Below, one piece after another: positions 1,182 through 18,029 of a stretch of DNA of 20,000 nucleotides. Within the stretch, counting starts at the first letter, position 1; every line of letters starts with the position of its first letter. The stretch comes from an uncultured virus (IMG/VR IMGVR_UViG_3300047491_000541). Taxonomy: Duplodnaviria; Heunggongvirae; Uroviricota; Caudoviricetes. The notes below the pieces were generated by a model, which was not told the DNA's origin, did no database searches, and saw only the letters and a list, made by a program, of their open reading frames with translations. A program made the translations under genes and the position numbers. The stretch is taken from the IMG/VR virus record IMGVR_UViG_3300047491_000541; one strand, given 5' to 3'.

Positions 1182-1288
1182 AAAAATTTTTCAGTTTTCA
1201 CGGTTTTACCATATAAGTGAGATTTCTCACCCCTTATGCCAGTCAATAACAATTTTTTCAATTTCTGTCGCTCGGAAGGGACCGGAAT

Positions 1289-2139: not shown

Positions 2140-2167
2140 AACGGCAGAATCCTTTTGATTTCTCCTT

Positions 2168-2452: not shown

Positions 2453-2571
2453 CCCTTGCCTACCTTCTCTGCTGCGTGATTCTTTTCGAGAACGAACTTA
2501 ATACCCCAGTTTCCGCCCCAGAAGATCGTCTTCTAGTCGCCTTTAGTTCATCCACGCCTTGATTTCTTTTA

Positions 2572-2955: not shown

Positions 2956-3019
2956 TCCTCATTTATCCCTTGTCATTCAAATCACATTACCAAATGGACG
3001 ATGAAATATAATTTATATT

Positions 3020-3292
3020 TTAAAAGTTTATAGGACCACTCCCTAAAACATAACCATCTGGATGATCGCCTACCGATTCCAATAGAGGTAAGAGCTTGGT
3101 CGAAGAGACGATCTGAGCCTCACCAGCCTCACCATACCGGATTGAAACCAGGGTAGCTCTCCGTGGAGGATCAGCAGGACTCCCGACTAGATTCTTAAAT
3201 GCCTTCTCGACACCCTGAACCTCGGCGAAAAGCTGAACATTGATCTCGCCACTCTCTTCCTCCATCAACAACACGCCTAATTCTTTTCTCAT
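3020..3292 (-). CDS. Hypothetical protein
   Basis: ATG at 3292 overlaps upstream stop (ATGA), GAGG RBS. Confidence 0.7.
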   Translation of the reverse strand: MRKELGVLLMEEESGEINVQLFAEVQGVEKAFKNLVGSPADPPRRATLVSIRYGEAGEAQIVSSTKLLPLLESVGDHPDGYVLGSGPINF

Positions 3293-3816
3293 GCACCTCT
3301 CCATTTCCAGAACCACTTTTTCTCGACCTTACGAATCATGTCTTCCACACTATATCTTGGATTACCCTCATGCCTCATCTCATCAGGAATGTCTTTCTTC
3401 AATTTTCCACGATAGAGCTTGTCCGGCAAGTTGATAACCAAACCATCATCCTGACCGGTGTTCGCATAGGCATGAATGACTCCCGGTGGAACAACCACCG
3501 TAGTCGGCTTGGATACTAAAATCGTTTTCTTGATGCCATAAGTCTTAGAAAGAAAACGCTCATCCCAAAGCCTGACAACCCACTCCCCAGTCAAAAAGAT
3601 GAATATGTCGGTTTGCTGAACATGCTCGTGTGGACCTCGCACGGTGTCCGGCTTCGTGCAAGAGATGTATGACATCGCTGGCATCACCGGAATATCCAAG
3701 TCATCCGAACGCCATACCTCCATGAGCCATCCTCGATGATCCTCATTCTTCGCGAGCAACTTGACCGAAACACCATCAATAAAATATCCAGATTTCCATT
3801 CCATTTTCCCCCCCAT
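3289..3816 (-). CDS. rmlC: dTDP-4-dehydrorhamnose 3,5-epimerase family (RmlC-like cupin)
   Basis: DHRGWLMEVWR, VRGPHEH, VVVPPGVIHAY motifs. Confidence 0.85.
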   Translation of the reverse strand: MGGKMEWKSGYFIDGVSVKLLAKNEDHRGWLMEVWRSDDLDIPVMPAMSYISCTKPDTVRGPHEHVQQTDIFIFLTGEWVVRLWDERFLSKTYGIKKTILVSKPTTVVVPPGVIHAYANTGQDDGLVINLPDKLYRGKLKKDIPDEMRHEGNPRYSVEDMIRKVEKKWFWKWRGA

Positions 3817-3840
3817 ACACTCGTTTGCCTACATCAACGA

Positions 3841-4065
3841 CTACCGTTCCATATTGTTGCTGTCCACGTCATCGTAAGCGGCCTTTAGTAAAACCTGCGC
3901 CATCTCATATACACCCTCCGGACCATACTTGCATAACAACATATCCACAGACTCAGCCTCACTTGGATTGAAAGAAACAACCTCTTTGGGCAGACGAGAT
4001 ACCGGAGAACATTCTTCGGTCACGCTACCGATTGGACCATTATAATTGCAATGTGCCATTATCAC
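3841..4065 (-). CDS. Hypothetical protein
   Basis: ORF track; coupled to upstream gene. Confidence 0.6.
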   Translation of the reverse strand: MIMAHCNYNGPIGSVTEECSPVSRLPKEVVSFNPSEAESVDMLLCKYGPEGVYEMAQVLLKAAYDDVDSNNMER

Positions 4066-4457
4066 CCTCCCTTTCGCTTTGGTTTACCTAACTTCTTTGC
4101 CTCATCCACGAAGGCATCAAGTGTTTTATTCACATATTCTTTCCAAAGGTCATTCGCTATGCGAGTCAACATCCCATTCTTCGCTATATCCTCAATCTTT
4201 ATAGGAACCCCTCCTATACGAATTTGAAGAGCCGCTAGACACTTCACAAGCATCTGCCCATCACCCTTGACCGTATGCACTAAAACGATGACTGTGGGCA
4301 GTATCCGTCCGTTTACCATGATGTCCACGGACCAATTACTTAAAGTGATCTCAGTTGCGGTGTCCCCAGCGTTGCCTTTATCATCAAAGTCCACCAGAAT
4401 GTTCTGACCCGATGGACCCAATACCACATACCCATTTGGAATGTCTGTCGCCTTCAT
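4062..4457 (-). CDS. Hypothetical protein
   Basis: ORF track; AGGGGT RBS. Confidence 0.7.
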   Translation of the reverse strand: MKATDIPNGYVVLGPSGQNILVDFDDKGNAGDTATEITLSNWSVDIMVNGRILPTVIVLVHTVKGDGQMLVKCLAALQIRIGGVPIKIEDIAKNGMLTRIANDLWKEYVNKTLDAFVDEAKKLGKPKRKGG

Positions 4458-4590
4458 TTAACCCCTATCCCATTAATCATTCAAACTGTCGTATTCTACC
4501 CCGCCTGCCAACTTCCTGATAAGAAAAAACATCATTTCCACCGCAATCAGAACATAGTCCATCTATATGTCGAACACGTAGCACGTACAT

Positions 4591-4884
4591 TCATCTAACC
4601 CTCTCATCATCGTAAACATAAACCCTCCCACCCGGAAAATTGCCGACAGACATAGTCCTGTCAAACTTGTATTCACAACGACAATACCCGTACTTCATCC
4701 ACTCTCTTAAATCACTGGCGCTCTGAAACACCGTCCTGCTCAAACATAGGGAACACTCCACCCAATACCAAGTCTCATGCCCTAAAGCCTCATTCAAAAC
4801 CATCCTAAGCCGATCTAGAGTCATGACCTTGAAAAAGGAAATCTCCCTATCTACTTCTTGCTCTGCTTGAACTATCCCGCCCAT
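4591..4884 (-). CDS. Hypothetical protein with CxxC/CxC motifs
   Basis: ORF track; VECSLC, YCRC. Confidence 0.6.
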   Translation of the reverse strand: MGGIVQAEQEVDREISFFKVMTLDRLRMVLNEALGHETWYWVECSLCLSRTVFQSASDLREWMKYGYCRCEYKFDRTMSVGNFPGGRVYVYDDERVR

Positions 4885-4999
4885 TCTTTACCTTTTTGTT
4901 TTTACTAAACCACTTGATGCTATCATACCCCTTCCGGTATCGATCTATATCCTTGACCCGACTCACTGACCCCTTGCCCGCCTCATGCTCTCCTATCAT
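4847..4999 (-). CDS. Small basic hypothetical protein
   Basis: ATG at 4999 with GAGGGGT RBS; AGKGS...YRKGYDSIKW. Confidence 0.55.
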   Translation of the reverse strand: MIGEHEAGKGSVSRVKDIDRYRKGYDSIKWFSKNKKVKNGRDSSSRARSR

Positions 5000-5230
5000 C
5001 TTACCCCTCTCCAAATAACTCTGATAAACCACTAAATCTTCCGCTTCATCCACCCATGTACAAAAATAGCCATTTTCCAAAACCTCGAAATTTTAAATTT
5101 TGAAACACCCTTTCTCTAAATATCTTCTTTCAACCATTTTACCCCATTTCCTAAAATGTAAATTTTATAAATTTCCGAAACGTAGAATAGGCCCCCGCTC
5201 TTGAAATTCATTCAGCTAGATTTATAGCTG

Positions 5231-5296
5231 TCCTATCCTATCCTATCCTGTTAAACTTACCCCTCTGATTATACCCTATCTCTGATTATACCCTAC
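5231..5296 (+). repeat. Short tandem repeats: (TCCTA)x~4 and 17-bp CTCTGATTATACCCTAY x2
   Basis: Seen at 5231-5249 and 5263-5279/5280-5296. Confidence 0.85.
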
Positions 5297-5519
5297 CCTC
5301 CGCTTTCACGATGATCCTCCCCCTCCCACAGACACCATCTCTGACGGATCTGCAGGCTTTTTATAATTTTAATGTGTTCCACCAAACTGTAAAATGAGCG
5401 TAATAATATAATAAGCATAGTTTTCGCCCTTGACGGACTACACACCATTCTACTCTGTAAATAGTTTGCAATTGAATCACTTATGAGATTTTACAAGCAT
5501 TTTTTACTTGATTCTGAAA

Positions 5520-5555
5520 GTGAGTGTAAATACCACTTTTCGTGAGTGTAAATAC
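5520..5555 (+). repeat. 14-bp direct repeat GTGAGTGTAAATAC x2, 22-bp period
   Basis: Copies at 5520-5533 and 5542-5555 in AT-rich non-coding region. Confidence 0.85.
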
Positions 5556-5635
5556 TTTCAAAAGTAAAGAAAAAAGTTTGGTTTTATACATCATAGGGGG
5601 ACTTGTAAGATTAACCCATTTTGGGTGTCACGTCC

Positions 5636-5848
5636 TCAGTAAGTCTTCGTTATCAGAACAGTTCTCTCCGAGTTTTTATCGCTAGGGATAGTGTCCTGCG
5701 GATACCACATAGTCGGCTCACTATCGAATGAAGTCAGCTTGTAGCCCTGACACCGCTTTGCAAAATGAGACTCCAACATGTGGATACATGTAATGCAATT
5801 TCTTGGATCAAAATTCCCCAGACCAACTTTGTCTTTTTTCTCCGACAT
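5636..5848 (-). CDS. Hypothetical CxxC protein
   Basis: ORF track; NCITCIH. Confidence 0.55.
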   Translation of the reverse strand: MSEKKDKVGLGNFDPRNCITCIHMLESHFAKRCQGYKLTSFDSEPTMWYPQDTIPSDKNSERTVLITKTY

Positions 5849-6386
5849 ATGCCTAGCTTTTTTGATAGTTTTTGTCTCTATTTATGTCCTTATATGATAC
5901 TACCCTTACTTTTACCCTTACTTAGTGATTATTACCCTTTCTCGCCTTCTAGGTGGGGGGGGTCAATTTCTATTAATTACAAGTGACGTATAAACTGAAG
6001 ATTTTTCTATAGTATAGGAGAACATCAATTTACAACAGCGTGTGGAAATATTATTATGGGTGTTTGATTTCGACCCATCTTTTTGGTTATTAGAGGGGTG
6101 TTGGTTTCATTGTGTCTGACTTCATGCGTCCTTTTTGGGGCATATAAGATTCGATGTCCCATCTGCGTGTTTCGGCTTAACAGGACAGAACAAGCGACCG
6201 TTGAACAAAAGGTGGAAACACCTTCATGTGTCACGGGCTACGGTAATAAATGCCCATCCAAGAACCGTTGAAGTAGATTCATGGTGGCGTTATGGTCATG
6301 CGGATGACGCTGACCACAGGCGGTGCTTCGTTTATGATATTTGGACGGGAGTATGAGGCTTTCCTGTTGCCGGGAATATTGTGGCT

Positions 6387-6923
6387 TTAATCATTGGTCC
6401 ACCTCCATTTTCTAAACAATGATTTTTGTGATTGAGCTTTAAATTCCGTATTTGTGAATGAGTGTCCGGCAGCGTTGGTATAGACTGGCAGGTTATTCGT
6501 CACATAGGCCAGATAAAATATTTTATTGACATCATTGGCAGCCAGAGCAGACGGGATAAAGGACCAGTCTACTTTGGCCATTTTGATGATTTGATCGGGA
6601 GCATTGGGGATCGGATTAGGCATAGCCTCAACGACGGTTGTATTACCGCCTCTGGCTGCGCTGAAAATCATAAGTGTGCAGATTAAGCCATAGAGGGTTT
6701 TGATTGAGAGTTTTTGCCCATTACTGGCAGTGACCATTAGGACGGCAAAGATGGCACTTAGTGACAGTGCTACGATAGCCGATGGCAAGACAGGGAAGGA
6801 CGAGCAAAGGCTCGTGGTGAAGGCCAGAACCATGGCTGAGCACGCTCCTGCCCCTACTACTGGCTTTGGACTGAGAAATTCGGACAGTTTGACTGCTTGT
6901 GAGGGTTCGACTGGTTCTGGCAT
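6387..6923 (-). CDS. Hypothetical membrane protein (about 3 TM segments)
   Basis: AAGGAG RBS; three hydrophobic stretches in N-terminal half. Confidence 0.75.
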   Translation of the reverse strand: MPEPVEPSQAVKLSEFLSPKPVVGAGACSAMVLAFTTSLCSSFPVLPSAIVALSLSAIFAVLMVTASNGQKLSIKTLYGLICTLMIFSAARGGNTTVVEAMPNPIPNAPDQIIKMAKVDWSFIPSALAANDVNKIFYLAYVTNNLPVYTNAAGHSFTNTEFKAQSQKSLFRKWRWTND

Positions 6924-6997
6924 GATTTTGGTCTCCTTGTTTTTGAGTTATCGTTCTATAGTGATAAATCGAAAAGGTCTGCCTGCAGGAGCCGAAT

Positions 6998-7273
6998 TCA
7001 GTTTAGCGTCATTCTTGGAGGATTAATTGGCGACGGCTCTGATGATTTAGATATAGCAGACTGACCATTAGGTTTGCAATAGCCTCCGCCAACGACGACC
7101 AATAATTTGACGGCAAAATACAAAAACAAAACAAAAATCAAACAGCCTAATGGCCCCCACCTGTCGTCGTCGTCTTCTGCTTCTTCTGCTTTATAGAGCC
7201 CGTACAGTTTTGCCACGTCGATGCAATGCTGACCCTCTGGAGTGGGTGGTTGTTCTGGGTTATCATCACTCAC
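6998..7273 (-). CDS. Hypothetical single-TM protein
   Basis: Probable GTG start 7273 with GAGGT RBS; acidic run then hydrophobic segment. Confidence 0.6.
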   Translation of the reverse strand: MSDDNPEQPPTPEGQHCIDVAKLYGLYKAEEAEDDDDRWGPLGCLIFVLFLYFAVKLLVVVGGGYCKPNGQSAISKSSEPSPINPPRMTLN

Positions 7274-8054
7274 TGAGATTACCTCTTCGTTGTCTCTTGC
7301 GAAAAGACCATTTATCAAAGCCATGAGATTCAGCCTTGATTTTGTCAAGAACTGGATGATCTTTTATTGATCCATCCCTTTTCACATCCCTCTTAGCCAG
7401 TTCATTTGTAAGATACCTCTCAATTGAATTAAATGCGGAAAATGGATCAATCCTCCGGTGCATCAGGACGACAGAAAGAACTGGATTTATGATAACTGAG
7501 GATGAATACTGGCATAGTCCATCCCTTCTCGCGTAATTAGCATCATCGCCCATCATTTCTGGAACACCGTCGGCATGACAGAAAATAGGGGCATTCAATT
7601 TACGATGCATTTCATCGATGGAGATTTTCTGAGCGACAGCATGACCGGGCAATTTTACGGCGGTAAAATCTATTGCGCCCCACGGCTTATCAGCTAGATC
7701 GAAAAGAGCCTTCATCCTTTTTTGGGGCGAGAAATCAAATGCATTTTTATCATTGATAATCTTGGACGGCAGATCATTATACGAGAAGACATAAGACTCC
7801 CGACCAGAAGTTGTGGTTATACGAGCCACTGGGATAGCTTTCCCGCAGAACCAAATGACAAAACCGAAAACGTCAACACCAGCAGGCTGCCTCTGAGGCT
7901 TATAAATCCGCTCGCCAAGGAGAACTGGAGAAGGAATGGCAAATTTGACATCAACTACTTTTGGTTTTCTTTCCCAAGAGTAGGTTTGATCTGACATCAT
8001 TTTATCACGAGCTAGATAGTCGTAATAGTCTTTGTATGTGCTAATTAGTTTCAC
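7266..8054 (-). CDS. Phage hypothetical protein
   Basis: 262 aa; ends MKLISTYKDYYD and HGFDKWSFRK resemble a phage hypothetical family as I recall it (not verified). Confidence 0.8.
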   Translation of the reverse strand: MKLISTYKDYYDYLARDKMMSDQTYSWERKPKVVDVKFAIPSPVLLGERIYKPQRQPAGVDVFGFVIWFCGKAIPVARITTTSGRESYVFSYNDLPSKIINDKNAFDFSPQKRMKALFDLADKPWGAIDFTAVKLPGHAVAQKISIDEMHRKLNAPIFCHADGVPEMMGDDANYARRDGLCQYSSSVIINPVLSVVLMHRRIDPFSAFNSIERYLTNELAKRDVKRDGSIKDHPVLDKIKAESHGFDKWSFRKRQRRGNLSE

Positions 8055-8512
8055 TCTTGTCTTACTTCCTGTTCGATAGGTCTATTTTCTACTAAATTGG
8101 TATGTCCATCGAGATAAAGAAAACGCACGGCATTAGTCCCCTGATAGTCCCCCGAACATACTGGACACTGAAATCTTGCATAGGTCGGAAGTCTTTTAAT
8201 GGAATCACATACTGGGCAAGCCGGACTTGAAAACTCGTCGGTTTGACAAATTGAGCAAAAAATTTGTTTGGTTGGTTCTGGATTAACTTTGAGTCCCTTA
8301 GATATGATTGACAACATCTTTTCCTTCTCCACTGGAGAGAATTCTCCTTCGGGTTTAAAGTTGACAGTCATACGGGAATAAGGCAAGGCAAGATATTGAG
8401 TGCCGTTCCCACCGACACAACCAGCCAAAATAAAACCAATAAACACGGTTGGCAACAATACCATCTTAAACATTCTCATCTTTTTATTCCTTTTTTTTAG
8501 ATAAAAACTCAT
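8051..8512 (-). CDS. Putative lipoprotein with three CxxC motifs
   Basis: Basic N-terminus, hydrophobic stretch, ILAGC lipobox; CSIC, CPVC, CPVC. Confidence 0.7.
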   Translation of the reverse strand: MSFYLKKRNKKMRMFKMVLLPTVFIGFILAGCVGGNGTQYLALPYSRMTVNFKPEGEFSPVEKEKMLSIISKGLKVNPEPTKQIFCSICQTDEFSSPACPVCDSIKRLPTYARFQCPVCSGDYQGTNAVRFLYLDGHTNLVENRPIEQEVRQE

Positions 8513-8757
8513 TCATGGTCATTATACCCCTCAGACATGTTTTTATGAGATTCTTTCTTCATCTCTCACGACGATTGTCCCTGAAGGTACTTTATAAAAC
8601 ATCCGTGGATGAATGTGATCCCATATCAATTGTTCCACATAGAACTTTACTAAAAACTACAGATTTTTCTTTAGTTTTCACAATCATGATCTTTCAGTTG
8701 ATATATCGGAAGAACAAAAAACTAAAGATTTTTCTTCACTTTTCTCATTTTACAATT

Positions 8758-9123
8758 TCATTCTGTCTGTCCAAGTGGATGCAAGATATGGATGACACCC
8801 CCTGCTGTGACGTGGAAATTTAAATGTTCAGGCAATTCTCGTAAACACAACTCTTGCAACTTAGACAGGATTGATTTCAAAAGTTCTTGACCAGACTTCA
8901 TCTTATTACTTCCACTGACATGAAGATAGAGTGTGTCATTATAATAATCCATAGAGACAATCATCCGGGTATTATCCTCAAAGTCGAAAATATTTTCCCG
9001 ATGATTTCCGGGGCGATCAGCACCCGCATTACACATCTTTTCAACGTCGTAGATTCGTTTCAGGGCAAACGGAAATCTTGCCGTCAGGTCTTGAATCGAT
9101 TCTTTTTTAAATGGCAATCCCAT
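8758..9123 (-). CDS. Hypothetical protein
   Basis: ORF track 121 aa. Confidence 0.75.
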   Translation of the reverse strand: MGLPFKKESIQDLTARFPFALKRIYDVEKMCNAGADRPGNHRENIFDFEDNTRMIVSMDYYNDTLYLHVSGSNKMKSGQELLKSILSKLQELCLRELPEHLNFHVTAGGVIHILHPLGQTE

Positions 9124-9214
9124 AAAGTAACACCTATCGGTAATATCTACAACGAACTAAGCACAATCTGAATCATAATGATGATTATGAGGAAAGTTGA
9201 TGTAATATCGTCAC

Positions 9215-9478
9215 TCATACTCTTCCGATCCTCACGGTGATTTTCGTATGATCAAGCGTAATGTCCATCTCGGTCATGTTGGCATCTCGAAGCACCTTGT
9301 CCAGAGTAATCGCAGCCGCCTGAGCGGTCGTGCTACTGAATCCAACAGGATCATACAAATCCTTTGCAATCGTCCGAACGCCCCTAGCTAGAGTCTCATC
9401 ACTCCATTCCAGAAATGTCGGGGCTGCACGCTCGGCATCTGTCAACGTCTTGTCAAAATCTTCCACTTTGGTGCTCAT
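9215..9478 (-). CDS. Hypothetical protein
   Basis: AAGGAG RBS; 87 aa. Confidence 0.75.
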   Translation of the reverse strand: MSTKVEDFDKTLTDAERAAPTFLEWSDETLARGVRTIAKDLYDPVGFSSTTAQAAAITLDKVLRDANMTEMDITLDHTKITVRIGRV

Positions 9479-9500
9479 GTCACAACTCCTTATTCTGTTT

Positions 9501-9677
9501 CTATTTCTTTTCTATTTCATCCAAGACGAGTTCCCAAACAGAATCCAGTGTCTCGTCTTCAGCCCAAGGAACATGCTTATCCGCCCATGTATCGAATGTG
9601 GCACGGCGAAATGAAGAATGCTTCATGCTTTTTACGAATGCCTTGGCTACATCAACGTTGATCGTGTTCTTTCCCAT
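9501..9677 (-). CDS. Hypothetical protein
   Basis: GGGAGG RBS before ATG 9677. Confidence 0.65.
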   Translation of the reverse strand: MGKNTINVDVAKAFVKSMKHSSFRRATFDTWADKHVPWAEDETLDSVWELVLDEIEKK

Positions 9678-9703
9678 AGACCCTCCCATAATCCCAGTGA
9701 ACA

Positions 9704-10300
9704 TCAATTGGAGATCACAAATGGTTTACCACAATAAGGGCAGAACGCCCAAGACTTCCAACACTCTTCGCTACAGGTGGACTTCCCGCAAAGAGTCATC
9801 GGCTCATACTCGATATGCCCTGAAATCATGTCGTCAGGCTGCCGTTCACACCTCATCCCACACTTCGGCTTCTCAACCAGTTCCTTGATCGTGTCCGCCA
9901 AAGCCTTCAATCCTGCCGGAGTATCCACATGGTAATGACCACAGGCAAGCCCGTGAAACCAATCGCGAGGGCTAGGACACCCACAATGACCATCGATCCT
10001 TACTTCCTGCCCAATAGCATTATGGAGTCTCTCTGCGGCTTTTACTTCGATCCCCGGTCCCTTGCAAACCCAGTAATTCCAAGACCGCTCGAATGTCCAG
10101 CCGTACAGTGAACCCATGATCGCTGACTTCACTTCGGCATTAAGATGTTGTCGACATTGATCCATGCCGCGACGAAGAAATTCGTAATTATTACGATGAC
10201 GAAGAAATTCGTGGTTGTCGACATTGATCCCTGCCGCTTTCAACTCAGCAGCCAGGACATCATCTGTCTTCAAAACCCCAGCCATATTAGGAAAACTCAT
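9704..10300 (-). CDS. Hypothetical phage protein with C-terminal zinc-ribbon-like motif
   Basis: VRIDGHCGCPSP, YHVDTPAGL, FCPYCGK. Confidence 0.8.
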   Translation of the reverse strand: MSFPNMAGVLKTDDVLAAELKAAGINVDNHEFLRHRNNYEFLRRGMDQCRQHLNAEVKSAIMGSLYGWTFERSWNYWVCKGPGIEVKAAERLHNAIGQEVRIDGHCGCPSPRDWFHGLACGHYHVDTPAGLKALADTIKELVEKPKCGMRCERQPDDMISGHIEYEPMTLCGKSTCSEECWKSWAFCPYCGKPFVISN

Positions 10301-10301
10301 T

Positions 10302-10526
10302 TCATGCCTCCAATCTAATATTCACGAATCCGGGTTGATCTGCACAAGGCTCACGCTCTGGTCCACCCTTAAGGTCTTTATTGCCCTTGCGAACGATTGC
10401 CCACCCGTTACCAGTCCAACACTCCTTCTGAGTGTTGGCGAATTCCTTGACCTCTTCATCTGTCCAATCCTCTGGAACACAGACTTGCATGTCTGACACG
10501 TTGATATACATTATCTTTGGTTTCAT
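10302..10526 (-). CDS. Hypothetical protein
   Basis: AAGGGAG RBS; MQVCVPEDWTDEEV. Confidence 0.75.
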   Translation of the reverse strand: MKPKIMYINVSDMQVCVPEDWTDEEVKEFANTQKECWTGNGWAIVRKGNKDLKGGPEREPCADQPGFVNIRLEA

Positions 10527-10527
10527 T

Positions 10528-10761
10528 TTATTCTCCCTTCTTAGAAAGAAGTTGTGGATCATCCGAAATGCCACCAGACAACCCGACCATATACTCCACA
10601 AAAGATGATCTTGTCTCAAGAGTAATCGGCAATGATGAAAAAACTGTATGAGTCCCGTAGTGTGGCTGAACTCCAATTAAGAAACCAGTGTCAATACATT
10701 TGATCACTGGTTTCTTTCCAGTTCTCTTTTCGATCTCGTTTACCACTTCATCACAAGTCAT
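10528..10761 (-). CDS. Hypothetical protein
   Basis: ORF track; RBS; operon packing. Confidence 0.65.
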   Translation of the reverse strand: MTCDEVVNEIEKRTGKKPVIKCIDTGFLIGVQPHYGTHTVFSSLPITLETRSSFVEYMVGLSGGISDDPQLLSKKGE

Positions 10762-10963
10762 AAATTATCCTTCCTTTGTCTCCATGATTCCTCGCTAAGC
10801 TCTCTTTGGCATCGTAGAATTTCGCAAGTCGTTCAACATATAATTATACACTTGTGCAAACCATCTGGATAGTATGATTCGTCCTCGCATGTGCATGGAA
10901 AGATAATGTATTCACCATCCTCTCCAACACTGTCTTGTTCGACCACTCACTCATAATCAACTC

Positions 10964-11260
10964 CTATTGCTGATCCTCTGGGACCACAACTATCTCCAAC
11001 ACTTTGTAGTGCAGGATTTTGAAAGGCGTCCGAACACGCTCTGACTCTGCAATCGCAAGATCAATTGCGAGAGTAACTCTGGCAACATCCACCTCTTCCC
11101 CATGCTTATAGTCAATAATCATCTTGGTAGGAGTCCCTACTCCCGTTAGTCCAAGCCCTGCCGCCGCCATGAAGTCCGAGACGTTTCGATCTCCTTGCAG
11201 AATCTCGACAATGGCTCGGTAATGTCCTTTAACTTGAGTCGTCTCTTTTTCTGAATCCAT
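10964..11260 (-). CDS. Hypothetical protein
   Basis: GAGGGG RBS before ATG 11260. Confidence 0.7.
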   Translation of the reverse strand: MDSEKETTQVKGHYRAIVEILQGDRNVSDFMAAAGLGLTGVGTPTKMIIDYKHGEEVDVARVTLAIDLAIAESERVRTPFKILHYKVLEIVVVPEDQQ

Positions 11261-11465
11261 AACCCCCTCATTGATCTTCAAATGCTCCCGACAACACCAT
11301 GGATGTCTTTGTTCCATCCACTGCCACTAAGACGCCTCCTGTATCAAAAGCCTGTGTTGCCCCTTCCAGAGCCCACCGATGATACTCTGTATCTATAGCG
11401 ACTTCGCACCATCCAACACGATCCTCTTGGCCTAGACATTACCGATTTCTGGTCAGCATAAGGAG

Positions 11466-11723
11466 TTATTTCATCTTGGCTATCACTTCCATAGCTATTG
11501 CCTTGCACTCTCGCCAGATTTTACGGCTGCCAATGTCATTCGGAACAAAGGGCTTCCTGAATCTCCAACACGGAAAAGATAAACAGACTTGCTCGACCTT
11601 GGACGAGTCTCCGCCACTCATCTCCACGATGACTCCGGCAATGCGAGCCTTTTCTTCCATAGACTTTTTGGCCGCCTCTCCATATAACGTGAGCGTTATT
11701 GCGATTTCGTTTGTCATTTTCAT
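11466..11723 (-). CDS. Hypothetical protein, weak resemblance to Hydrolase_2 N-terminus
   Basis: AAGGAGG RBS; AITLTLYGEA and FPCW recall the LARTIYGEA...QFSCW pattern (weak). Confidence 0.6.
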   Translation of the reverse strand: MKMTNEIAITLTLYGEAAKKSMEEKARIAGVIVEMSGGDSSKVEQVCLSFPCWRFRKPFVPNDIGSRKIWRECKAIAMEVIAKMK

Positions 11724-11737
11724 GTCCTCCTTGATAG

Positions 11738-12193
11738 TCACCAACCAACACTTAACGGTTGGGAACTCGCAAATGTTGAATAAAAAGTAGTGCCACGATG
11801 TTCTATTTTGGGCAATTCTTTCCGAGGCTGCTTGGCAAGTCGGTAGATACCATCAACAGTCACATAAAGATGTCCAGTCTCTACTAATTCTGCCAACCCC
11901 ACGTCCCAATTGCGCCGCTTGGTTTTATCGGTGGCAATTTCTCTGGCAATAACGCCCATCATGGCATCTGATGAAGCCGAGCCTCCAAGAGACTTGATGA
12001 TATCTAAGAACATCTTTCCGCAAGGACTTACCTCGTCTTTTCCAGGTCGTCCGATTTTAGTAGGTAGTTTTCTCATAGATTTTCTCACAGATTTTCCCTT
12101 AAACGAATTCGGTCGCTTACAACCGACACTCTGCCATACTGTTGGAGCGACCTCGAACATGCTCGACAATCGCAATGCAGTGCGGGCCGACAC
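11738..12193 (-). CDS. Hypothetical basic protein, possible winged helix
   Basis: ORF track; LAELVETGHLYVTVDGIYRL. Confidence 0.6.
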   Translation of the reverse strand: MSARTALRLSSMFEVAPTVWQSVGCKRPNSFKGKSVRKSMRKLPTKIGRPGKDEVSPCGKMFLDIIKSLGGSASSDAMMGVIAREIATDKTKRRNWDVGLAELVETGHLYVTVDGIYRLAKQPRKELPKIEHRGTTFYSTFASSQPLSVGW

Positions 12194-12209
12194 CTCAACA
12201 GTAGAGCCA

Positions 12210-12458
12210 TCAGGTGTCTGATATCCACTCCCCCCTTTTATTTCTCAGAAACTCCAGCATCTTTATGCCATCCATCCTACACGAACAACGTTGAGTCTTT
12301 CCACGACCTACATACGGGACTTCTCCTCCATTTTCCTTGAAAACCGGACAGAGATTGCAATGACCTTGCCCGCTTTTCTCACACGTCTCTTGTAATGCAG
12401 TCACGATGTCGGATTCTTCAATCGGCTCCTTGTACACCAGTTTCATCAGAATGCTCAT
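12210..12458 (-). CDS. Hypothetical Cys-rich protein
   Basis: GGAGG RBS, ATGA overlap; CNLCP, CSC. Confidence 0.7.
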   Translation of the reverse strand: MSILMKLVYKEPIEESDIVTALQETCEKSGQGHCNLCPVFKENGGEVPYVGRGKTQRCSCRMDGIKMLEFLRNKRGEWISDT

Positions 12459-12838
12459 ACTTCCTCCACTTGATCACAGTTACACCATCTCTCCTCGTCT
12501 TCACGGACCCATGTCGCACAACGCTTGCAACGAAACCCGACATGCCCAGAAGACCTCTCAAACACCCAGTCACCCTTGCTACTCTGAGACCATGACCGGC
12601 GATCATGCTCCAAATCCTTGGAGACCTTGTTGTCAGTAACGATGTCTACCTCGTCAAAGTCAGGATAGTACCGGCAGCAACCGTTGCTCATGGAAAGTCT
12701 GCGCTTCTCCCAGTCAATCGTGATGATTCGGCAGACGCCAGGATCAGGCGATCGCCGCTTGTATCGAGCTAAAAACGGAGGATCTGCCAACAAAATGCAG
12801 GGTACAGTTGCCCCGCTCGCGTTTTCCTGTTCACTCAT
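12455..12838 (-). CDS. Hypothetical protein, probable two-cassette fusion
   Basis: AAGGAG RBS and ATG lie in loop of site 12785-12882; internal GTT core at 12629; C-terminal CKRC...CNC. Confidence 0.7.
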   Translation of the reverse strand: MSEQENASGATVPCILLADPPFLARYKRRSPDPGVCRIITIDWEKRRLSMSNGCCRYYPDFDEVDIVTDNKVSKDLEHDRRSWSQSSKGDWVFERSSGHVGFRCKRCATWVREDEERWCNCDQVEEV

Positions 12839-12882
12839 GGTGTTCTCCTTTGGGCAACTGCCCCTGATTTCTGAAGTTGGCA
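12785..12882 (+). mobile_element. attC-like site (98 bp) with RBS and start codon in loop
   Basis: TGCCAAC...GTTGGCA complementary ends; stem CAGGG-TA-CAGTTGCCC / GGGCAACTG-C-CCCTG. Confidence 0.8.
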
Positions 12883-12961
12883 ATCAATGCATGGTCTAGC
12901 GGCTCTTCTCTCCCCATGCACGGCGTAGTATGGGGTTGCCCCCTCCACCGCTCAGCCGGAT

Positions 12962-13018
12962 TGCCAAAAATCGTGTCAAAACTACCTCGCTTCGCTCGGA
13001 ATGTACCTGTGGAGCGGC
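12962..13018 (+). mobile_element. Degenerate attC-like site
   Basis: GATTGCCAAA pairs 9/10 with GTTGGCAATC at 12876; CTCGCTTCGCTCGG centre; right core decayed. Confidence 0.5.
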
Positions 13019-13227
13019 AGCTCAATGCCGCGCTTTGCAAGTAAGACTGCGAACCACTCCGCGCGAGTGTTGTTGTATTTCGGCCCCATCTCGAAAGCCG
13101 CGTCAATAAGGATGCCAGCAAGTTCGTCGCGTTCGGCGTCGTTCAACATGCCCAAGTCGAGCGTCGTCGACGATTCGACCACTTGCACGGTTACGAAACT
13201 GCTTGTGTGTCTGACCTTGATTTCCAT
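12982..13227 (-). CDS. Hypothetical protein
   Basis: AAGGAG RBS; 81 aa. Confidence 0.75.
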   Translation of the reverse strand: MEIKVRHTSSFVTVQVVESSTTLDLGMLNDAERDELAGILIDAAFEMGPKYNNTRAEWFAVLLAKRGIELPLHRYIPSEAR

Positions 13228-13240
13228 CGTTTGTCTCCTT

Positions 13241-13540
13241 TCAGTGTTTGTCCGTACGGCTGTCCGTGCGCCACACCAATACTATGCGGCTGTCCGTGCG
13301 CCACACCAATACTATGATCAGCACTAACAGCGATACCAAGGCCGTGAAGCAGAGGGCGCCGACGCAGAGGGCGAGCACCGTGAACCAGCGATCACCGCCG
13401 GCGGAGTGATTCAGCAAGGCGGCGATGCCGGCGGCCATCGTGAATGCACCGGCGGCCATCGTGTAAGCGATGATCCATGAAAGCGAGGGCCATTCGAGGA
13501 GGGCCACGAGAAACAGGTGTTTGAGGTTCTTCTTATTCAT
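13241..13540 (-). CDS. Hypothetical membrane protein
   Basis: AAGGAG RBS; 2-3 hydrophobic segments; duplicated IVLVWRTDSR. Confidence 0.7.
   Translation of the reverse strand: MNKKNLKHLFLVALLEWPSLSWIIAYTMAAGAFTMAAGIAALLNHSAGGDRWFTVLALCVGALCFTALVSLLVLIIVLVWRTDSRIVLVWRTDSRTDKH
13257..13316 (+). repeat. Perfect 30-bp tandem duplication
   Basis: CGGCTGTCCGTGCGCCACACCAATACTATG x2. Confidence 0.95.
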
Positions 13541-13568
13541 CGAACTCCTTTTTGGGGGTGGCAAAGAG

Positions 13569-14231
13569 TCACCTCTTGGCGTTGGGCTTCGTAACCCTAA
13601 GTGTCTTAACCAACCGATAGTTGTCCGAGTCGAAGTCCTCAGAGCAACCAGCTCGACCTACATTGCGACCAGCGACGCACACATGCAGTGTGCCGCGGTG
13701 CCGACTCTCATAAACCTCGACCAAGTTGCCGACCACTGCCATAACGCAATCAATTGGCGGATAAGGCTTGCCATCCGGGCCAGTAACATTCCTGTCGATT
13801 TCGATGCTGATGTGTCGTACTACGTCGAACCACACAAAATGCTTTTTCCCGAAACCGAGCAACCGTTTGATCTTCTTCCACATGTTCTTCATCGTTGTCC
13901 TTTCGTTAGATTCTTGCCCGAACAATCGCTTGAGCCAACGGCAAGTACGCCATGGCTCACCTCCCGTGTTGGCCTTGCGCGTAACCCACGTCACCAAGCC
14001 CAACGGCGTGTACAGATTCCAGTATCTGGCCGTGCCGTTCGCGCCGCCGTACTTGCAAGCGACCCAGCCGCTGCGTGCACGGTACACGTCCAACGTGAGG
14101 CGTCCGACGTGCAGGCGAATCAGCCGCTTGCCCCACGTCGAGACGTTCAGAGATCGCCAGCCGTAGGTGTGCCTATCCGCTTCGGCAGAGTACGGGTCCA
14201 GTGTTGCATCAATCGTCGTTGTCCCGTTCAT
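13569..14231 (-). CDS. Hypothetical ORF spanning two cassettes (internal start 13892)
   Basis: AAAGGA RBS before both 14231 and 13892; reads through site 13917-13974. Confidence 0.65.
   Translation of the reverse strand: MNGTTTIDATLDPYSAEADRHTYGWRSLNVSTWGKRLIRLHVGRLTLDVYRARSGWVACKYGGANGTARYWNLYTPLGLVTWVTRKANTGGEPWRTCRWLKRLFGQESNERTTMKNMWKKIKRLLGFGKKHFVWFDVVRHISIEIDRNVTGPDGKPYPPIDCVMAVVGNLVEVYESRHRGTLHVCVAGRNVGRAGCSEDFDSDNYRLVKTLRVTKPNAKR
13917..13974 (+). mobile_element. attC-like site (58 bp) inside coding sequence
   Basis: CCCGAAC...TGAGCCA-ACGGC-AAGTAC-GCCA-TGGCTCA...GTTGGCC hairpin. Confidence 0.75.
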
Positions 14232-14261
14232 TGTGTCCTTTCTGCACCGGCTGACCAAGAA

Positions 14262-14318
14262 GGCCAACCAGCGCATCGAAGCGACGACTACCCGCCGTGC
14301 CTCACGCTTTTGTTATTG
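14262..14318 (+). mobile_element. attC-like site (57 bp)
   Basis: GGCCAAC-CAGCG-CATCGAAG ... CCTCACG-CTTTT-GTTATTG; left end pairs 9/9 with 13968. Confidence 0.75.
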
Positions 14319-14894
14319 CCGCATATCGGACTGTTGGGCTGTCAGCATATCAGCCAGTCCCGCTGCGATGGCCTCGTGCCCTGCGCGATTCGGGTGTATG
14401 TCGCGTCCGTCAAAGTGATGAGGCAGAAGGACACTTCTCGTGTCGAAGGTCTCAACACCATCCGGCAATGCGCCGCATATAGCAGCGTTGAGCAACGGGC
14501 ACGCGATTGCTGACCTGATGTCTCGTCCGCAAAACGGGTCTGCGTACAGCAGAACAATAGTGCGTGCCTTTCGGACGGTCTCCACCGTGCGCCGCAACGC
14601 GGACACCCCGGCGCTGACCTCATCCGGCGTCACGGTTCCGTCTGCTATCGCCGCAAAAGCGTCGTTGCCGAGCAGCGAAATGATAACCACGTCGGCGGAT
14701 GTCTGTGCGGCACGAGTCAAGCGTCCATCGAAATTATCGGCCCACTGCGCGGCCGTGCTGCCAGCGATGGCCTGCCGCAGGTCGTCGGCAATGCCAAGCA
14801 TCATCGGCCAGCCCATGCGGTCGCCCTCTCCAGCAACCACGGCTGAGGACCACGAATCCCCGACAACTAGCGCATTCAGTGAGATCGTCTTCAT
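14313..14894 (-). CDS. SGNH/GDSL hydrolase (esterase/deacetylase)
   Basis: VVGDSW block I, AIAGST block II, LLGND block III, DIHPN block V; ATG 14894 overlaps upstream stop. Confidence 0.9.
   Translation of the reverse strand: MKTISLNALVVGDSWSSAVVAGEGDRMGWPMMLGIADDLRQAIAGSTAAQWADNFDGRLTRAAQTSADVVIISLLGNDAFAAIADGTVTPDEVSAGVSALRRTVETVRKARTIVLLYADPFCGRDIRSAIACPLLNAAICGALPDGVETFDTRSVLLPHHFDGRDIHPNRAGHEAIAAGLADMLTAQQSDMRQ
14319..14339 (+). repeat. Conserved attI-like/half-site motif copy 3
   Basis: CCGCATATCGGACT-GTTGGGC; GTT at 14333. Confidence 0.8.
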
Positions 14895-15361
14895 TCCTTG
14901 TCCCCTCCTACATCGTTCCGCCGAGGAACATCCCCGGCGGTATTGAGGCGTATCGCGCTGTTGGCCTTGCGGATGGCCTGCACCACTTCGCCCAAGGCGA
15001 CTGATCGTCCCTTGAACCACTCTGCGCGAATTGCGTTGCCTGCGGCTTCCTGCTGCTGCGCGTGTTCCCACGCCAGATCGGCAGAGGATTGAACCTCGGC
15101 CAACACTGCGGCCAACACTGCGTCCAAGGTACGCGGCTGCACCGCGCCCGTGACACTGGCGTTCGGCTTCAATGTCCCGCCGTATGCGTGGTCTGGACAG
15201 TATGTCTTTCCGTTGCTGAGGCACTGCCATCCACGCTTCTGCATGACCGGCTCAACGGCACGCTGCCCGTCAAACTCTCCGTTGACGTACTCAGACTCGA
15301 CCGAACATCCTCCAAAGTCGCACTGCAACTTGCTTTGCCCACGTCCTACGATTGTGCCCAT
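14891..15361 (-). CDS. Hypothetical two-module protein (Zn-finger-like plus helical) fused through an attC-like site
   Basis: AAGGAGGT RBS; CDFGGC...YCPDH, then linker encoded by 15110-15167. Confidence 0.75.
   Translation of the reverse strand: MGTIVGRGQSKLQCDFGGCSVESEYVNGEFDGQRAVEPVMQKRGWQCLSNGKTYCPDHAYGGTLKPNASVTGAVQPRTLDAVLAAVLAEVQSSADLAWEHAQQQEAAGNAIRAEWFKGRSVALGEVVQAIRKANSAIRLNTAGDVPRRNDVGGDKE
14946..14966 (+). repeat. Conserved attI-like/half-site motif copy 4 (divergent)
   Basis: AGGCGTATCGCGCT-GTTGGCC; lies in a 59-bp block homologous to 130-188. Confidence 0.7.
15110..15167 (+). mobile_element. attC-like site (58 bp) inside coding sequence
   Basis: GGCCAAC-ACTGC-GTC[C]AAGG-TACGCGG-CTGCA-CCGCGC-CCGTGAC-ACTGGC-GTTCGGC; canonical spacers and extra C. 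Confidence 0.85.
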
Positions 15362-15362
15362 A

Positions 15363-15626
15363 TCAGACCTCCTTCCGAAAAGTCGAGCCAGAGCATTCAG
15401 GCGCGGGTACTCCAGCCTGAGCCTCGGCGTTCGCCTTCTTGATCTTGTCATGCAGGTTCTCGTACCGTTTTGCCAGCCTATTTGCGGCGCGGACCGTGCG
15501 CGTCTGGTCAGGTGTCTGATGCCACGGTTCCAGCGTGTGAACGTCGGCAATGGACTCTTGCCAGAGCTTGGCGTCCCACAGCGCGGACAACAGGAGCGGA
15601 ATGTCCCGGCGAGCGAGAGGCTTCAT
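15363..15626 (-). CDS. Hypothetical protein
   Basis: AAGGGAG RBS; C-terminus runs through degenerate site 15374-15435. Confidence 0.7.
   Translation of the reverse strand: MKPLARRDIPLLLSALWDAKLWQESIADVHTLEPWHQTPDQTRTVRAANRLAKRYENLHDKIKKANAEAQAGVPAPECSGSTFRKEV
15374..15435 (+). mobile_element. Degenerate attC-like site
   Basis: TCAGGC/GCCTGA stem; CCTGAGC-CTCGGC-GTTCGCC right arm. Confidence 0.5.
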
Positions 15627-15841
15627 GATATCGTCTCCCTTCGGTCGCCGAAGCATGAGTCTCGGCGTTGGATGTTCGGTTTACAGTTCCGGCAAAGCGG
15701 CAGAACTTGAGTGATGCCAACGTTACCGACGCTGTAGAACTCAACATGCGTCGTTGACCTACAAACCGAACACGCCGGTGCAGAACTACCGGCGACCAGC
15801 GCCGCTTGCGTCTGTCTCTCAACCATGCGTTGTGTGTTCAT
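15623..15841 (-). CDS. Zinc-ribbon microprotein
   Basis: GAGGAG RBS; CSVC...CRNC. Confidence 0.7.
   Translation of the reverse strand: MNTQRMVERQTQAALVAGSSAPACSVCRSTTHVEFYSVGNVGITQVLPLCRNCKPNIQRRDSCFGDRRETIS
15765..15835 (+). mobile_element. attC-like site encoding N-terminus of 15623..15841
   Basis: ACCGAAC-ACGCC-GGTGCAGA ... TCTCAAC-CATGC-GTTGTGT; left end pairs 9/9 with 15674. Confidence 0.65.
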
Positions 15842-15844
15842 CGC

Positions 15845-16453
15845 TCACTCCTCCTTCGCGCTGGCTGGTTTTACGTCAACCGGAACCAAGTTTGTGTCGA
15901 TGCGAGCCTCATTGGATAGCAGTTTTCGCACGAAGTTGTCCGCCTCGGTCCAGATTCCCCCCTTGAGACTACCCGCCGTAACCACGTTTGTGCAGAGGCC
16001 AGCCTCATCGTCTAGCGGTTTTTCGTTTTGGTCAGACACGGTCCACATACCATCCTTGTACATACCCACACTCACTAGGTTTGTGCCGAGGCTAATCTTA
16101 CCGTATAACATCACTGTGATGTGGTCAGATATACCGAAGACGGGCCACTTGCGCATGTATACCGTGACCATGTTTGTGTCGCTTGTTCCATTGAGACTGC
16201 CCATCGTAACCCTTTTTGTCACGGTGACATGCTCTTCGGCTAGTATTCTTATGGTGGGGTCCGGAAAGATGTCGTGGGCCTGACTCATCGGAAGCCATTT
16301 GTCGGTGCGATCATCCTCGGCTGGCGGGTTTCTCTGTAGTTTCAGCTTGTCACTGCCTACCGCCACCCCCAGCGCAAAGCAAATCACGTAGCTAATTGCC
16401 CTCGCCACATACCGCACAACCCGCCCACGCTGCTTAAATGTCTTCACTGTCAT
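15845..16453 (-). CDS. Hypothetical membrane-anchored protein
   Basis: AAAGGGGTGA RBS; N-terminal hydrophobic segment. Confidence 0.75.
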   Translation of the reverse strand: MTVKTFKQRGRVVRYVARAISYVICFALGVAVGSDKLKLQRNPPAEDDRTDKWLPMSQAHDIFPDPTIRILAEEHVTVTKRVTMGSLNGTSDTNMVTVYMRKWPVFGISDHITVMLYGKISLGTNLVSVGMYKDGMWTVSDQNEKPLDDEAGLCTNVVTAGSLKGGIWTEADNFVRKLLSNEARIDTNLVPVDVKPASAKEE

Positions 16454-16502
16454 ACAATCACCCCTTTCTCATTACCGCCCCGCCACGGCCATTTATTGGC
16501 CG
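16450..16502 (+). repeat. Leader repeat A copy 1 (hairpin, RBS, ATG on minus strand)
   Basis: Identical to 17087-17138 except one T. Confidence 0.95.
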
Positions 16503-16504
16503 TT

Positions 16505-16526
16505 GCGCATATCGGGCTAGTTGGGC
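16505..16526 (+). repeat. Conserved attI-like/half-site motif copy 5 (1-nt insertion)
   Basis: GCGCATATCGGGCT[A]GTTGGGC; GTT at 16520. Confidence 0.75.
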
Positions 16527-16831
16527 GTACAGGGTATTCCTTGCTGCGTCAGGAACACCGATCCGTGCCCATACTTCATGGCGTATCGTTGAACAGCCAT
16601 CCAGAACGAGTCCACGTTTCCGTTGCACTTCGCGGACCAGTTCGCCATGCGAAACGTAAGTCCTTGCGTGCCCTCTACGCAGTAATGCGTCCGGCCATAA
16701 TCACCAGGCGCCCACTCCACCAGCGCGATGAAGTTCAGGCCGTGCGCCTGCGCGTCCTTCGCCAGTTCGGACAGTTTCGGGGCAATCACTTCATCGTAGT
16801 ATTTCTCTCCGTCTGTCACTTGCCACCTCAA
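16517..16831 (-). CDS. Hypothetical protein
   Basis: ORF track; EKYYDEVIAPKL...GNVDSF; start uncertain. Confidence 0.75.
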   Translation of the reverse strand: MRWQVTDGEKYYDEVIAPKLSELAKDAQAHGLNFIALVEWAPGDYGRTHYCVEGTQGLTFRMANWSAKCNGNVDSFWMAVQRYAMKYGHGSVFLTQQGIPCTPN

Positions 16832-16839
16832 TTCATTAC

Positions 16840-16896
16840 GCCCAACAAGCCGTCGTGATCGACGGCTACCCGCCGCGCTTCATGCTTTCGTTGTGC
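16840..16896 (+). mobile_element. attC-like site (57 bp)
   Basis: GCCCAAC...GCTTCAT-GCTTTC-GTTGTGC; left end pairs 10/10 with 16520, right end 11/11 with 17043. Confidence 0.8.
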
Positions 16897-17090
16897 GTCT
16901 GCTTACGAAGTTCCGTCATGCACTTGGCGCACATCCTGATTTCAAGGTGCCGATGTTCGTCGTTGGACCGCACCACCCACACCATGCGCTCGGTGTTGCG
17001 CGTGCAGAAATTGCATCCGCCACTGTTTGCCGTTGACTCCCAAGACGCACAACAAGTTCGTCGAGGGCATTCCTCATTCGCTGCGCTCAT
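16866..17090 (-). CDS. Zinc-ribbon microprotein
   Basis: CNFC...CAKC; start supplied by leader repeat A. Confidence 0.75.
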   Translation of the reverse strand: MSAANEECPRRTCCASWESTANSGGCNFCTRNTERMVWVVRSNDEHRHLEIRMCAKCMTELRKQTHNESMKRGG

Positions 17091-17138
17091 ACAATCACCC
17101 CTTTCTCATTACCGCCCCGCCACGGCCATTATTGGCCG
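17087..17138 (+). repeat. Leader repeat A copy 2
   Basis: See 16450-16502; lies between GCACAAC (17047) and GTTAGGC (17151). Confidence 0.95.
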
Positions 17139-17151
17139 GTAGCATTGGCGG

Positions 17152-17463
17152 TTAGGCTTGTTGCCATTCAGCCCCACAGTCCAGACATCGCGGCGGGTCC
17201 GACATGTGCGACACGCGACAGACGTGCCCTGTCGAACCAGCCACTTGAGCGGACGGAGTACCGCCGATCACTTGCACGTCCGCATCCGCGAGAGCCGCCC
17301 GCGCGAGGTCGCGCATGGCGCAGGCTGTCGTGTCGCCGTCCGCGAGCGCGTTGGCAGCGAACCGGCAGTCCTCTGAACATGCCATCAACCTATCGCACTC
17401 CGGGCAGGTCGCAATTGAGACAAGCGCGGCGTGCAATCCCTCGCACTTGCTGCATGTAGTCAT
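17152..17463 (-). CDS. Cys-rich protein, probable fusion across site 17231-17284
   Basis: CSKC, CPEC, CLDC; stop lies in GCCTAAC. Confidence 0.7.
   Translation of the reverse strand: MTTCSKCEGLHAALVSIATCPECDRLMACSEDCRFAANALADGDTTACAMRDLARAALADADVQVIGGTPSAQVAGSTGHVCRVSHMSDPPRCLDCGAEWQQA
17231..17284 (+). mobile_element. Degenerate attC-like site inside coding sequence
   Basis: GTCGAAC-CAGCC-ACTTGAGC-GG...CCGCCGATCAC-TTGCAC-GTCCGCA. Confidence 0.55.
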
Positions 17464-17515
17464 GACGTTTCCCCCATCCCCATTATTTGCCGTTCTTGCC
17501 GCATATCGGGCTGTT
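17437..17515 (+). repeat. Leader repeat B copy 1 (includes motif copy 6, RBS, MTTCSKCEG codons)
   Basis: 78/79 identical to 17947-18025. Confidence 0.95.
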
Positions 17516-17518
17516 CTG

Positions 17519-17680
17519 CTAATTGGCGTCGGAGTATCGCCCGCACGAGCCGCAATAGCGATGTATCTTCCCCGGCCTTTCCGGCGACGACAGGCGAAGC
17601 ATGTGTGTGCTCTTACAGAACTGGCACCGTCGAACAGGCCTCTTGAATTGACCGCTCACAGCGCGTTTATTTTTAGTCAT
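17519..17680 (-). CDS. Zinc-ribbon microprotein
   Basis: ATG 17680 after GGGGAGGG; CQFC...CGSC. Confidence 0.7.
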   Translation of the reverse strand: MTKNKRAVSGQFKRPVRRCQFCKSTHMLRLSSPERPGKIHRYCGSCGRYSDAN

Positions 17681-17731
17681 GACGTTTTCCCTCCCCATTA
17701 TTGGACGTTTCCGCATATCGGGCTGTTCGGC
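17674..17731 (+). repeat. Leader repeat B divergent copy (includes motif copy 7)
   Basis: TAGTCATGACGTTT...TCCCCATTATT...CCGCATATCGGGCT-GTTCGGC. Confidence 0.85.
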
Positions 17732-17973
17732 AATACAAGCCGGTAGCACGGGAACTCGCGGTCCATATCCAGCACCGGCAACATCGTTGACTTGCGAAAC
17801 CGAATGACATGCTGCGAGTCAACCGCGCGGGCGTGCCACTCGGTTCTGGTCTCTTTGCACAGGATGCCGTCTTTCGTCGGCTGATAGCATCCATAAGACG
17901 GAACAAGCCGAACCATGCGGTCCATATTACTCCCTCCCTGCGGTCTTCCCTCGCACTTGCTGCATGTAGTCAT
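17698..17973 (-). CDS. Hypothetical protein (alternative start MDRMV)
   Basis: First 9 aa identical to 17152..17463; ends PNSPICGNVQ in the motif. Confidence 0.65.
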   Translation of the reverse strand: MTTCSKCEGRPQGGSNMDRMVRLVPSYGCYQPTKDGILCKETRTEWHARAVDSQHVIRFRKSTMLPVLDMDREFPCYRLVLPNSPICGNVQ

Positions 17974-18029
17974 GACGTTTCCCCCATCCCCATTATTTGC
18001 CGTTCTTGCCGCGTATCGGGCTGTTGGCG
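17947..18029 (+). repeat. Leader repeat B copy 2 (includes motif copy 8)
   Basis: See 17437-17515; GTT at 18023. Confidence 0.95.

Follow-up and report, generated by a model that had tools for sequence, protein, structure and literature searches.

We find that a 156-codon ORF in this phage DNA is read in frame, and backwards, through an attC-like site, and that it consists of three parts meeting at two G|TT cores. On balance we favour an origin of this three-part fusion by integron-type recombination, with the integrase supplied from outside the contig and a unit without start or stop codon placed between the two cores. That hairpin-plus-helix unit is likely a portable protein tail, attached to neighbouring genes by integron-type recombination. 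The site is very probably a real recombination boundary, and the fusion is probably translated as one chain; selection for the fusion as such is quite possible, if short of probable. The window referred to below is the whole stretch of 20,000 nt that was analysed, which forms the end of a linear 73.3-kb virus record whose completeness is estimated at 33%. Its features at the locus are as follows.

14316-14894, minus strand: GDSL-like lipase/acylhydrolase gene (PF13472, E 5e-11); its start overlaps the stop of the fused ORF
14891-15361, minus strand: fused ORF (protein P0001, 156 aa) of head, site-encoded linker, helical module and tail; spanned by single contigs
14891-14959, minus strand: tail, derived from the arm of the attI-like repeat; residues 135-156 and a stop codon that shares bases with the ATG of the GDSL-hydrolase gene downstream
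14939-14966, plus strand: attI-like repeat with the core GTTGGCC at its end, belonging to a non-palindromic repeat family; G|TT 14960/14961, read as Asn134
14961-15161, no strand assigned: cassette A, site plus helical module, 201 bp or 67 codons; in the ORF's frame it contains neither a stop nor an ATG
14963-15109, minus strand: helical module, residues 85-133 (49 aa), a predicted two-helix hairpin (pLDDT ~90+); found alone in P0008
15098-15109, plus strand: 12-bp tandem duplication of R'' and spacer that lengthens the beginning of helix 1 by four residues and is missing from homologues
15110-15167, top strand plus: attC-like site with R'' at 15110-15116, R' at 15161-15167 and presumed crossover G|TT 15161/15162; read backwards, an 18-residue linker from Asn67
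15164-15361, minus strand: head module, residues 1-66; Cys14, Cys19, Cys47, Cys55 and His58 invariant in 4/4 sequences; found alone in P0005-P0007
15368-15374, minus strand: Shine-Dalgarno-like AAGGAGG, separated by 6 nt from the downstream ATG at 15361; the same start is used in P0005-P0007
15373-15435, plus strand: second attC-like site with degenerate R''; G|TT 15429/15430; 20.1 bits, E 0.009

The fused gene and its setting

A first-pass annotation had described the ORF as reading in frame through a complete attC-like site that fuses two modules. The read-through holds, with 156 codons open from 15361 to 14891 on the minus strand, and a head and a helical module are indeed joined, but the boundary at G|TT 14960/14961 had been missed and the ORF is therefore three-part, not two-part. 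Asparagine is read at both cores (Asn67 and Asn134). Three freshwater metagenome runs, drawn from two studies, contain the stretch, and the DNA may come from any one of them, whereas two RNA-labelled runs yielded no contigs, a result that carries no information on expression; single contigs cover all of it with 0 differences in three of four runs (X1, X2 and X3, possibly its source), an assembly error is therefore unlikely, and we reject an assembly artefact as the cause of the ORF. We class the feature as a variant of integron-type cassettes, outside the canonical kind, because its orientation and ORF features depart from that kind and its site is a candidate integrase substrate. Nearly all plausible genes of the window lie on the minus strand; among them, by eye, the ORFs at 1309-2139 and 87-563 (both minus) resemble a DNA methyltransferase and a P-loop kinase.

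Neither Pfam nor PHROGs gave a significant family for P0001 or its homologues, an Rfam scan of the window returned 0 matches, and a fold search with the full predicted model returned 0 at E <= 0.001. In that model pLDDT falls below 50 at residues 54-76 and a two-helix hairpin spans residues 79-144; the linker is accordingly predicted to be disordered, with its far end starting helix 1. AlphaFold modelled the head too poorly for use (mean pLDDT 45), and its Atlas neighbours are unnamed proteins of 68-80 aa (0.91), while an Atlas search with linker plus helix gave nothing above 0.75. To judge from its invariant Cys and His residues, the head is likely metal-binding. The predicted hairpin would most likely serve as a coiled-coil-type binding or oligomerising tag, which is a guess, and a small metal-binding head carrying such a tag is our best guess for P0001 as a whole.

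The attC-like site and its duplication

The ORF crosses the 58-bp site backwards, and the minus strand of the site encodes (P)NASVTGAVQPRTLDAVLA, as the first-pass annotation had proposed for a linker. The AAC triplet of R'' (15114-15116) and the GTT triplet of R' (15161-15163) are conserved. R' is GTTCGGC and R'' is GGCCAAC, each one position off the GTTRRRY consensus or its complement, and most cores of this genome likewise depart from GTTRRRY at one position. On a hand-set pairing table the site has 5- and 6-nt spacers, a paired L box, extrahelical G and A and a 5-nt loop; the L box contains one C-T mismatch, at a position that is paired in the DNA homologue L005 described below.

The window site is a weak example of attC. 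Its bottom-strand hairpin is no stabler than shuffles (z -0.08). A structure (covariance) model built from 14 other sites of the same genome, with a hand-set structure on an imperfect alignment, matches at exactly 15110-15167, and does so weakly (15.5 bits, E 0.097); a sequence-only model of those 14 sites does not find the window site. Our ad hoc site scanner gave 1 match scoring at least 10.5 in the window versus 1 in 30 shuffles.

The two copies of the duplicated 12-mer start at 15098 and 15110, and the predicted R-box pairing probability, 0.80-0.86 for the site alone, drops to ~0.3 with the duplication included. The duplication had also been said to preserve the frame: it is real and keeps the frame, but it is not what sets it, the unit having 67 codons with it and 63 without. 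As a cause of the frame we reject it, given that P0003, P0004 and L005 lack it and the unit is in frame either way. In X1 and X2 a second short contig matches positions 15111-15163 only, with 4 differences and unrelated flanks on both sides; the site therefore also serves another gene body. Elsewhere in the window, at 13257-13316, there is a perfect 30-bp tandem duplication at the 3' end of the ORF 13241-13564.

Cassette A and its neighbours

A typical integron cassette, though this is not obligatory, carries a complete ORF on the attC top strand that ends before attC. Cassette A does not: its coding frame lies opposite the attC top strand and passes through the site without start or stop. All three of its bottom-strand frames are open, and all three top-strand frames contain stops. 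The reverse complement of R'' equals the core at 14960-14966 in 7/7 bases, versus only 5/7 for R' in place, and a 7/7 match is the expected outcome when a circular cassette inserts at G|TT. The same holds among the sites with a core nearby, of which 8/9 match their own core in all four variable bases versus 2/9 for R' in place (20 sites were considered; the 9 with a listed core within 400 bp were counted and the 11 without such a core excluded).

Other contigs diverge behind 14963, at the core of the attI-like repeat, and the tail that follows differs in P0003/P0004 and in P0008. An attI proper is a simple non-palindromic site with a GTT core that recombines as double-stranded DNA and is associated with an intI and a promoter. 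No intI is linked to the repeat at 14939-14966, and an exact-pattern scan of viral contigs for it returned no match. A non-palindromic motif ending in GTT has 19 loose matches, all on the plus strand and some probably false (window 169-18029; G000:C1 41926-51795), and possibly this genome holds many attI-like sites.

On the other side, cassette B (15162-15429, 268 bp), bounded by the second attC-like site, holds the head module. The gene upstream of the fused ORF crosses the site at 15373-15435 at an Asn, and its stop lies 2 nt before the ATG of the fused ORF. No joint with cassette A excised was seen in the contigs of X1-X3, which as contigs drop rare forms. Farther upstream, a degenerate attC-like site (10.7 bits) lies at window 15608-15680, and after it comes a pair of GTT cores spaced by 7 bp; by eye, the ORF upstream of the site appears to use the outer GTT core in the Asn phase.

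Exchange of partners

A full-length protein search identified 3 proteins among 121 candidates. P0002 is the shorter database gene call of the same contig, starting at a TTG two codons before the core. In P0003 and P0004 this linker and helix, lacking the duplication, follow heads that are 50 and 60 residues long. The heads of P0001, P0003 and P0004 are mutually unrelated, and in each protein the break coincides with the Asn of the G|TT core. A search with the head gave P0005-P0007 (3/3 candidates, each of 73-75 aa); immediately past that Asn, P0005 and P0006 continue into different 8-residue tails, and P0007 diverges a few residues earlier. The helix profile search, with 4 of 928 candidates, adds P0008, a stand-alone helix protein of 75 aa. 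The first-pass annotation had proposed searching the halves separately, and the partners do differ, with breakpoints at the site; among the proteins searched there is no full-length homologue lacking the site, which it had named as one of the findings that would count against a fusion at the site. All three protein searches covered near lengths only, and they under-sample distant homologues of both halves.

Residues 8-15 of P0008, its leader, are identical to the peptide from an attC at G000:C1 52227-52250 (8 residues, E 0.006). P0008 thus likely has a different, start-supplying site, judging from the protein alone, and its leader suggests that gene bodies change attC sites. Scans of viral contigs with protein or alignment queries and DNA patterns, scans of metagenomes, and INPHARED searches with blastn and tblastn gave no match; G001, the bin containing L005, was the only one of 401 genomes of its class to match.

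Read-through across the genome

The fused ORF belongs to an arrangement that recurs along the contig. The attC-shaped sites have their top strand on the plus strand in 21/24 scanner matches, including 9/9 of those scoring 10 or more. At 21 of the 26 usable sites the crossing gene reads AAC as Asn (p 9e-7, expectation 1/3), and at the other 5 it is in another phase, a count based on partly hand-picked and partly repeated sites that are not independent, with longest ORFs rather than annotations taken as genes; the 26 were left from 35 candidates after dropping 6 with no GTT at the expected place and 3 with no upstream ORF of 40+ codons. Among the 21 Asn-phase sites, 13 stop the incoming frame inside the site, 1 does so at its edge, and 7 let it run on for 55-133 codons; at 3 of these 7, among them the window site, no ATG lies within the site or shortly beyond it. 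The fused ORF is therefore one instance of a general arrangement. The attC-like sites at 13916, 14262, 15110, 15373 and 16840, with no integrase close by, make the locus a CALIN; the 73.3-kb contig (33% complete) yielded neither a tyrosine recombinase nor an integron integrase, with no match to PF00589 or TIGR02249, and does not qualify as a complete integron.

Several further observations concern the same contig. The ORF 13572-14276 (minus) runs through the site at 13916-13974 in the Asn phase for 133 codons, and one X1 contig lacks 13581-13967, passing directly from one GT end to the other, as would a relative without that unit. Asn-phase read-through also occurs at G000:C1 38755, 43880, 45556, 51696 and 36665. 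Two units of G000:C1, 45475-45609 (135 bp) and 51556-51768 (213 bp), have lengths that are multiples of three, like cassette A. At G000:C1 ~15300-25400 and 42480-43103 lies a tandem array of >12 small paralogous genes that have an N-terminal motif in common and contain low-complexity repeats.

Such frequent read-through is also what one would expect if the fusion were a by-product, in which an attC without an in-phase stop fuses genes and the fused chain is translated and tolerated, with only one module, the helical one or the head, that matters and a site that is perhaps decaying. Chance alone leaves 70% of shuffles of the site stop-free (14% for shuffles of the 201-bp unit), and we reject stop-free read-through as evidence in itself. 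Both halves are also found alone, each fusion is known from one cluster only, and R'' is damaged in L005 and duplicated in the window. Against a by-product, the start-less unit persists over dS ~0.75, in three fusions, without having gained a stop or an ATG, and dN/dS of the linker is below 1. We regard this reading as unlikely.

Possible selection on the linker

L005, which encodes P0003, lies on a 7.2-kb contig of a Planctomycetaceae bin (it may be mis-binned), near a terminase-like ORF (a weak Pfam match, below cut-off). Of the two fused homologues, P0003 alone is represented by DNA, which extends no farther than the contig end; this DNA resembles the window DNA only from the R' core onward. 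Against L005, dN/dS is 0.24 for the linker (18 codons, one pair, Fisher p 0.013, computed without a term for the hairpin) and 0.08 for the helix (30 codons, one pair, p 6e-5). Differences in the linker fall at third positions in 8/14 cases (p 0.058), and the linker signal is common to one top-strand frame. This one pairwise comparison suggests that the site-encoded linker is under selection as protein.

One compensatory pair, G-C here and T-A in L005, occupies third codon positions on both sides, and both changes are synonymous, a first hint of a dual constraint on the site from protein and hairpin. In L005 the conserved triplet of R'' is changed, synonymously; the structure model does not find the site on L005, and no other attC was found in the 7.2 kb of the contig. 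The L005 copy of the site may be dead, and the pattern fits, for a single pair of sequences, a peptide that would be kept while its site decays. The bin that holds L005 also contains L007 (G001:C354:347-1288), an integron integrase that scores above the cut-off of TIGR02249 and has one internal TAA.

The first-pass annotation had gone further and proposed that cassette recombination could act as domain shuffling with the site as linker. The partner swap at G|TT and dN/dS of the linker agree with this, but the halves also occur separately (P0005-P0008) and read-through is common in the genome.

If the long ORF were only a merge made in gene calling, the helix would be translated separately from a TTG or GTG in or beside the site. 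P0008, a stand-alone helix protein with its start inside its own site-derived leader, gives this idea some ground, as do the start of P0002 at the TTG before the core and a TTG at linker codon 17 that is common to L005. The head, however, has no stop at its end; its Shine-Dalgarno match is strong and it starts where its homologues do, while no internal start has a good Shine-Dalgarno match (no internal GTG or TTG in the site exceeds 3 bases). Moreover, the shared TTG lies downstream of every one of the 14 linker differences, and these still favour synonymous change. We consider separate translation of the halves very unlikely.

A model for the fusion

Under integron-type recombination, an attC in this genome would normally supply a stop to the incoming gene and a start to its own gene. 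The window site would supply neither, and the cassette gene at the R' side would thus be extended by the linker and the helical hairpin, with the arm of the site on the other side of cassette A supplying tail and stop. Partners would change through cassette insertion or excision at G|TT, presumably by an IntI-type enzyme encoded elsewhere. In favour of this model are the partner swap at Asn67 in P0003 and P0004, the boundaries, the frame, the three heads and the stand-alone halves. Against it are a hairpin like that of shuffles, a weak own-genome model score, no integrase in the 33%-complete contig, the damage to R'' in L005, the weakened predicted R-box pairing in the window copy, and the database gene call P0002 starting at a TTG just before the site.

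Phage mosaicism has also been modelled as homologous recombination at short shared boundary sequences, and the site might be such a sequence rather than an integrase substrate, a reading that draws on the weak hairpin and model score, the lack of an integrase in view and the near-identical site copies in other contigs, but which we consider highly improbable given that the breaks fall at the G|TT core and not anywhere in the shared sequence, that R'' matches the far end of its own unit, that the extrahelical bases and the compensatory pair are kept, and that the sites of this genome differ widely in sequence yet have the same anatomy.

A bolder version of the integron-type model would have phages run natural domain shuffling on integron hardware, with phase-locked antisense, partly exon-like cassettes, attC as a selected linker and a borrowed integrase, the 201-bp unit being an obligate C-terminal tag on three heads. 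We put this forward tentatively, as possible though doubtful.

Comparison with known systems

The idea of attC as a linker has been raised before (PMC2926619), and synthetic attC sites are reported to work both as recombination sites and as protein linkers, with module shuffling proposed as a use (PMC7439510). Those linkers were engineered; the window site would be a natural case. Fused gene cassettes, in which two cassette ORFs are joined into one unit or protein, are described in review (PMC8876359). The closest natural precedent is GCUF1-OXA-28 of a class 1 integron, where, according to the published account, a natural ORF runs through an intact attC, one fusion protein was shown experimentally, and the cassette is still excisable by IntI1 (PMC3375312). 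There, as reported, the cassettes have the usual orientation, and the downstream gene keeps its own start and loses activity through the fusion (PMC3375312). Here, by contrast, a phage ORF reads through on the opposite strand, its downstream module lacks an ATG, and three partners are seen.

CALINs in phages, attC clusters without an integrase, have been described, with 5/6 tested sites recombined by IntI1 (PMC9892861). The main text of that paper, whose supplements may show orientation, does not mention antisense, opposite or in-frame reading, and its one mention of fusion concerns plasmids. Insertion by attC x attG, reported for SALINs, lets cassettes enter genomes at non-classical sites (bioRxiv 10.1101/2022.09.11.507474), and such insertion could explain the L005 copy. 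The window unit differs from SALINs in that it lies in an array beside a repeated attI-like motif; the text on SALINs mentions neither fusion nor in-frame reading (bioRxiv 10.1101/2022.09.11.507474). Our search, with most subscription papers and supplements outside it, found no paper describing antisense cassettes that lack a start and are fused to varying partners.

Integrons are known for the shuffling of whole genes, and a natural cassette holding only a module, its recombination site constrained both as hairpin and as codons, would, if true, extend integron recombination to the inside of genes. Such a cassette would also offer a concrete route for the origin of the many small orphan phage proteins. 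With a 58-bp site and a 156-aa protein, the locus is directly testable. To the systems above it adds one start-less unit on three heads, both halves of the fusion also occurring alone, and the first hint of dual constraint.
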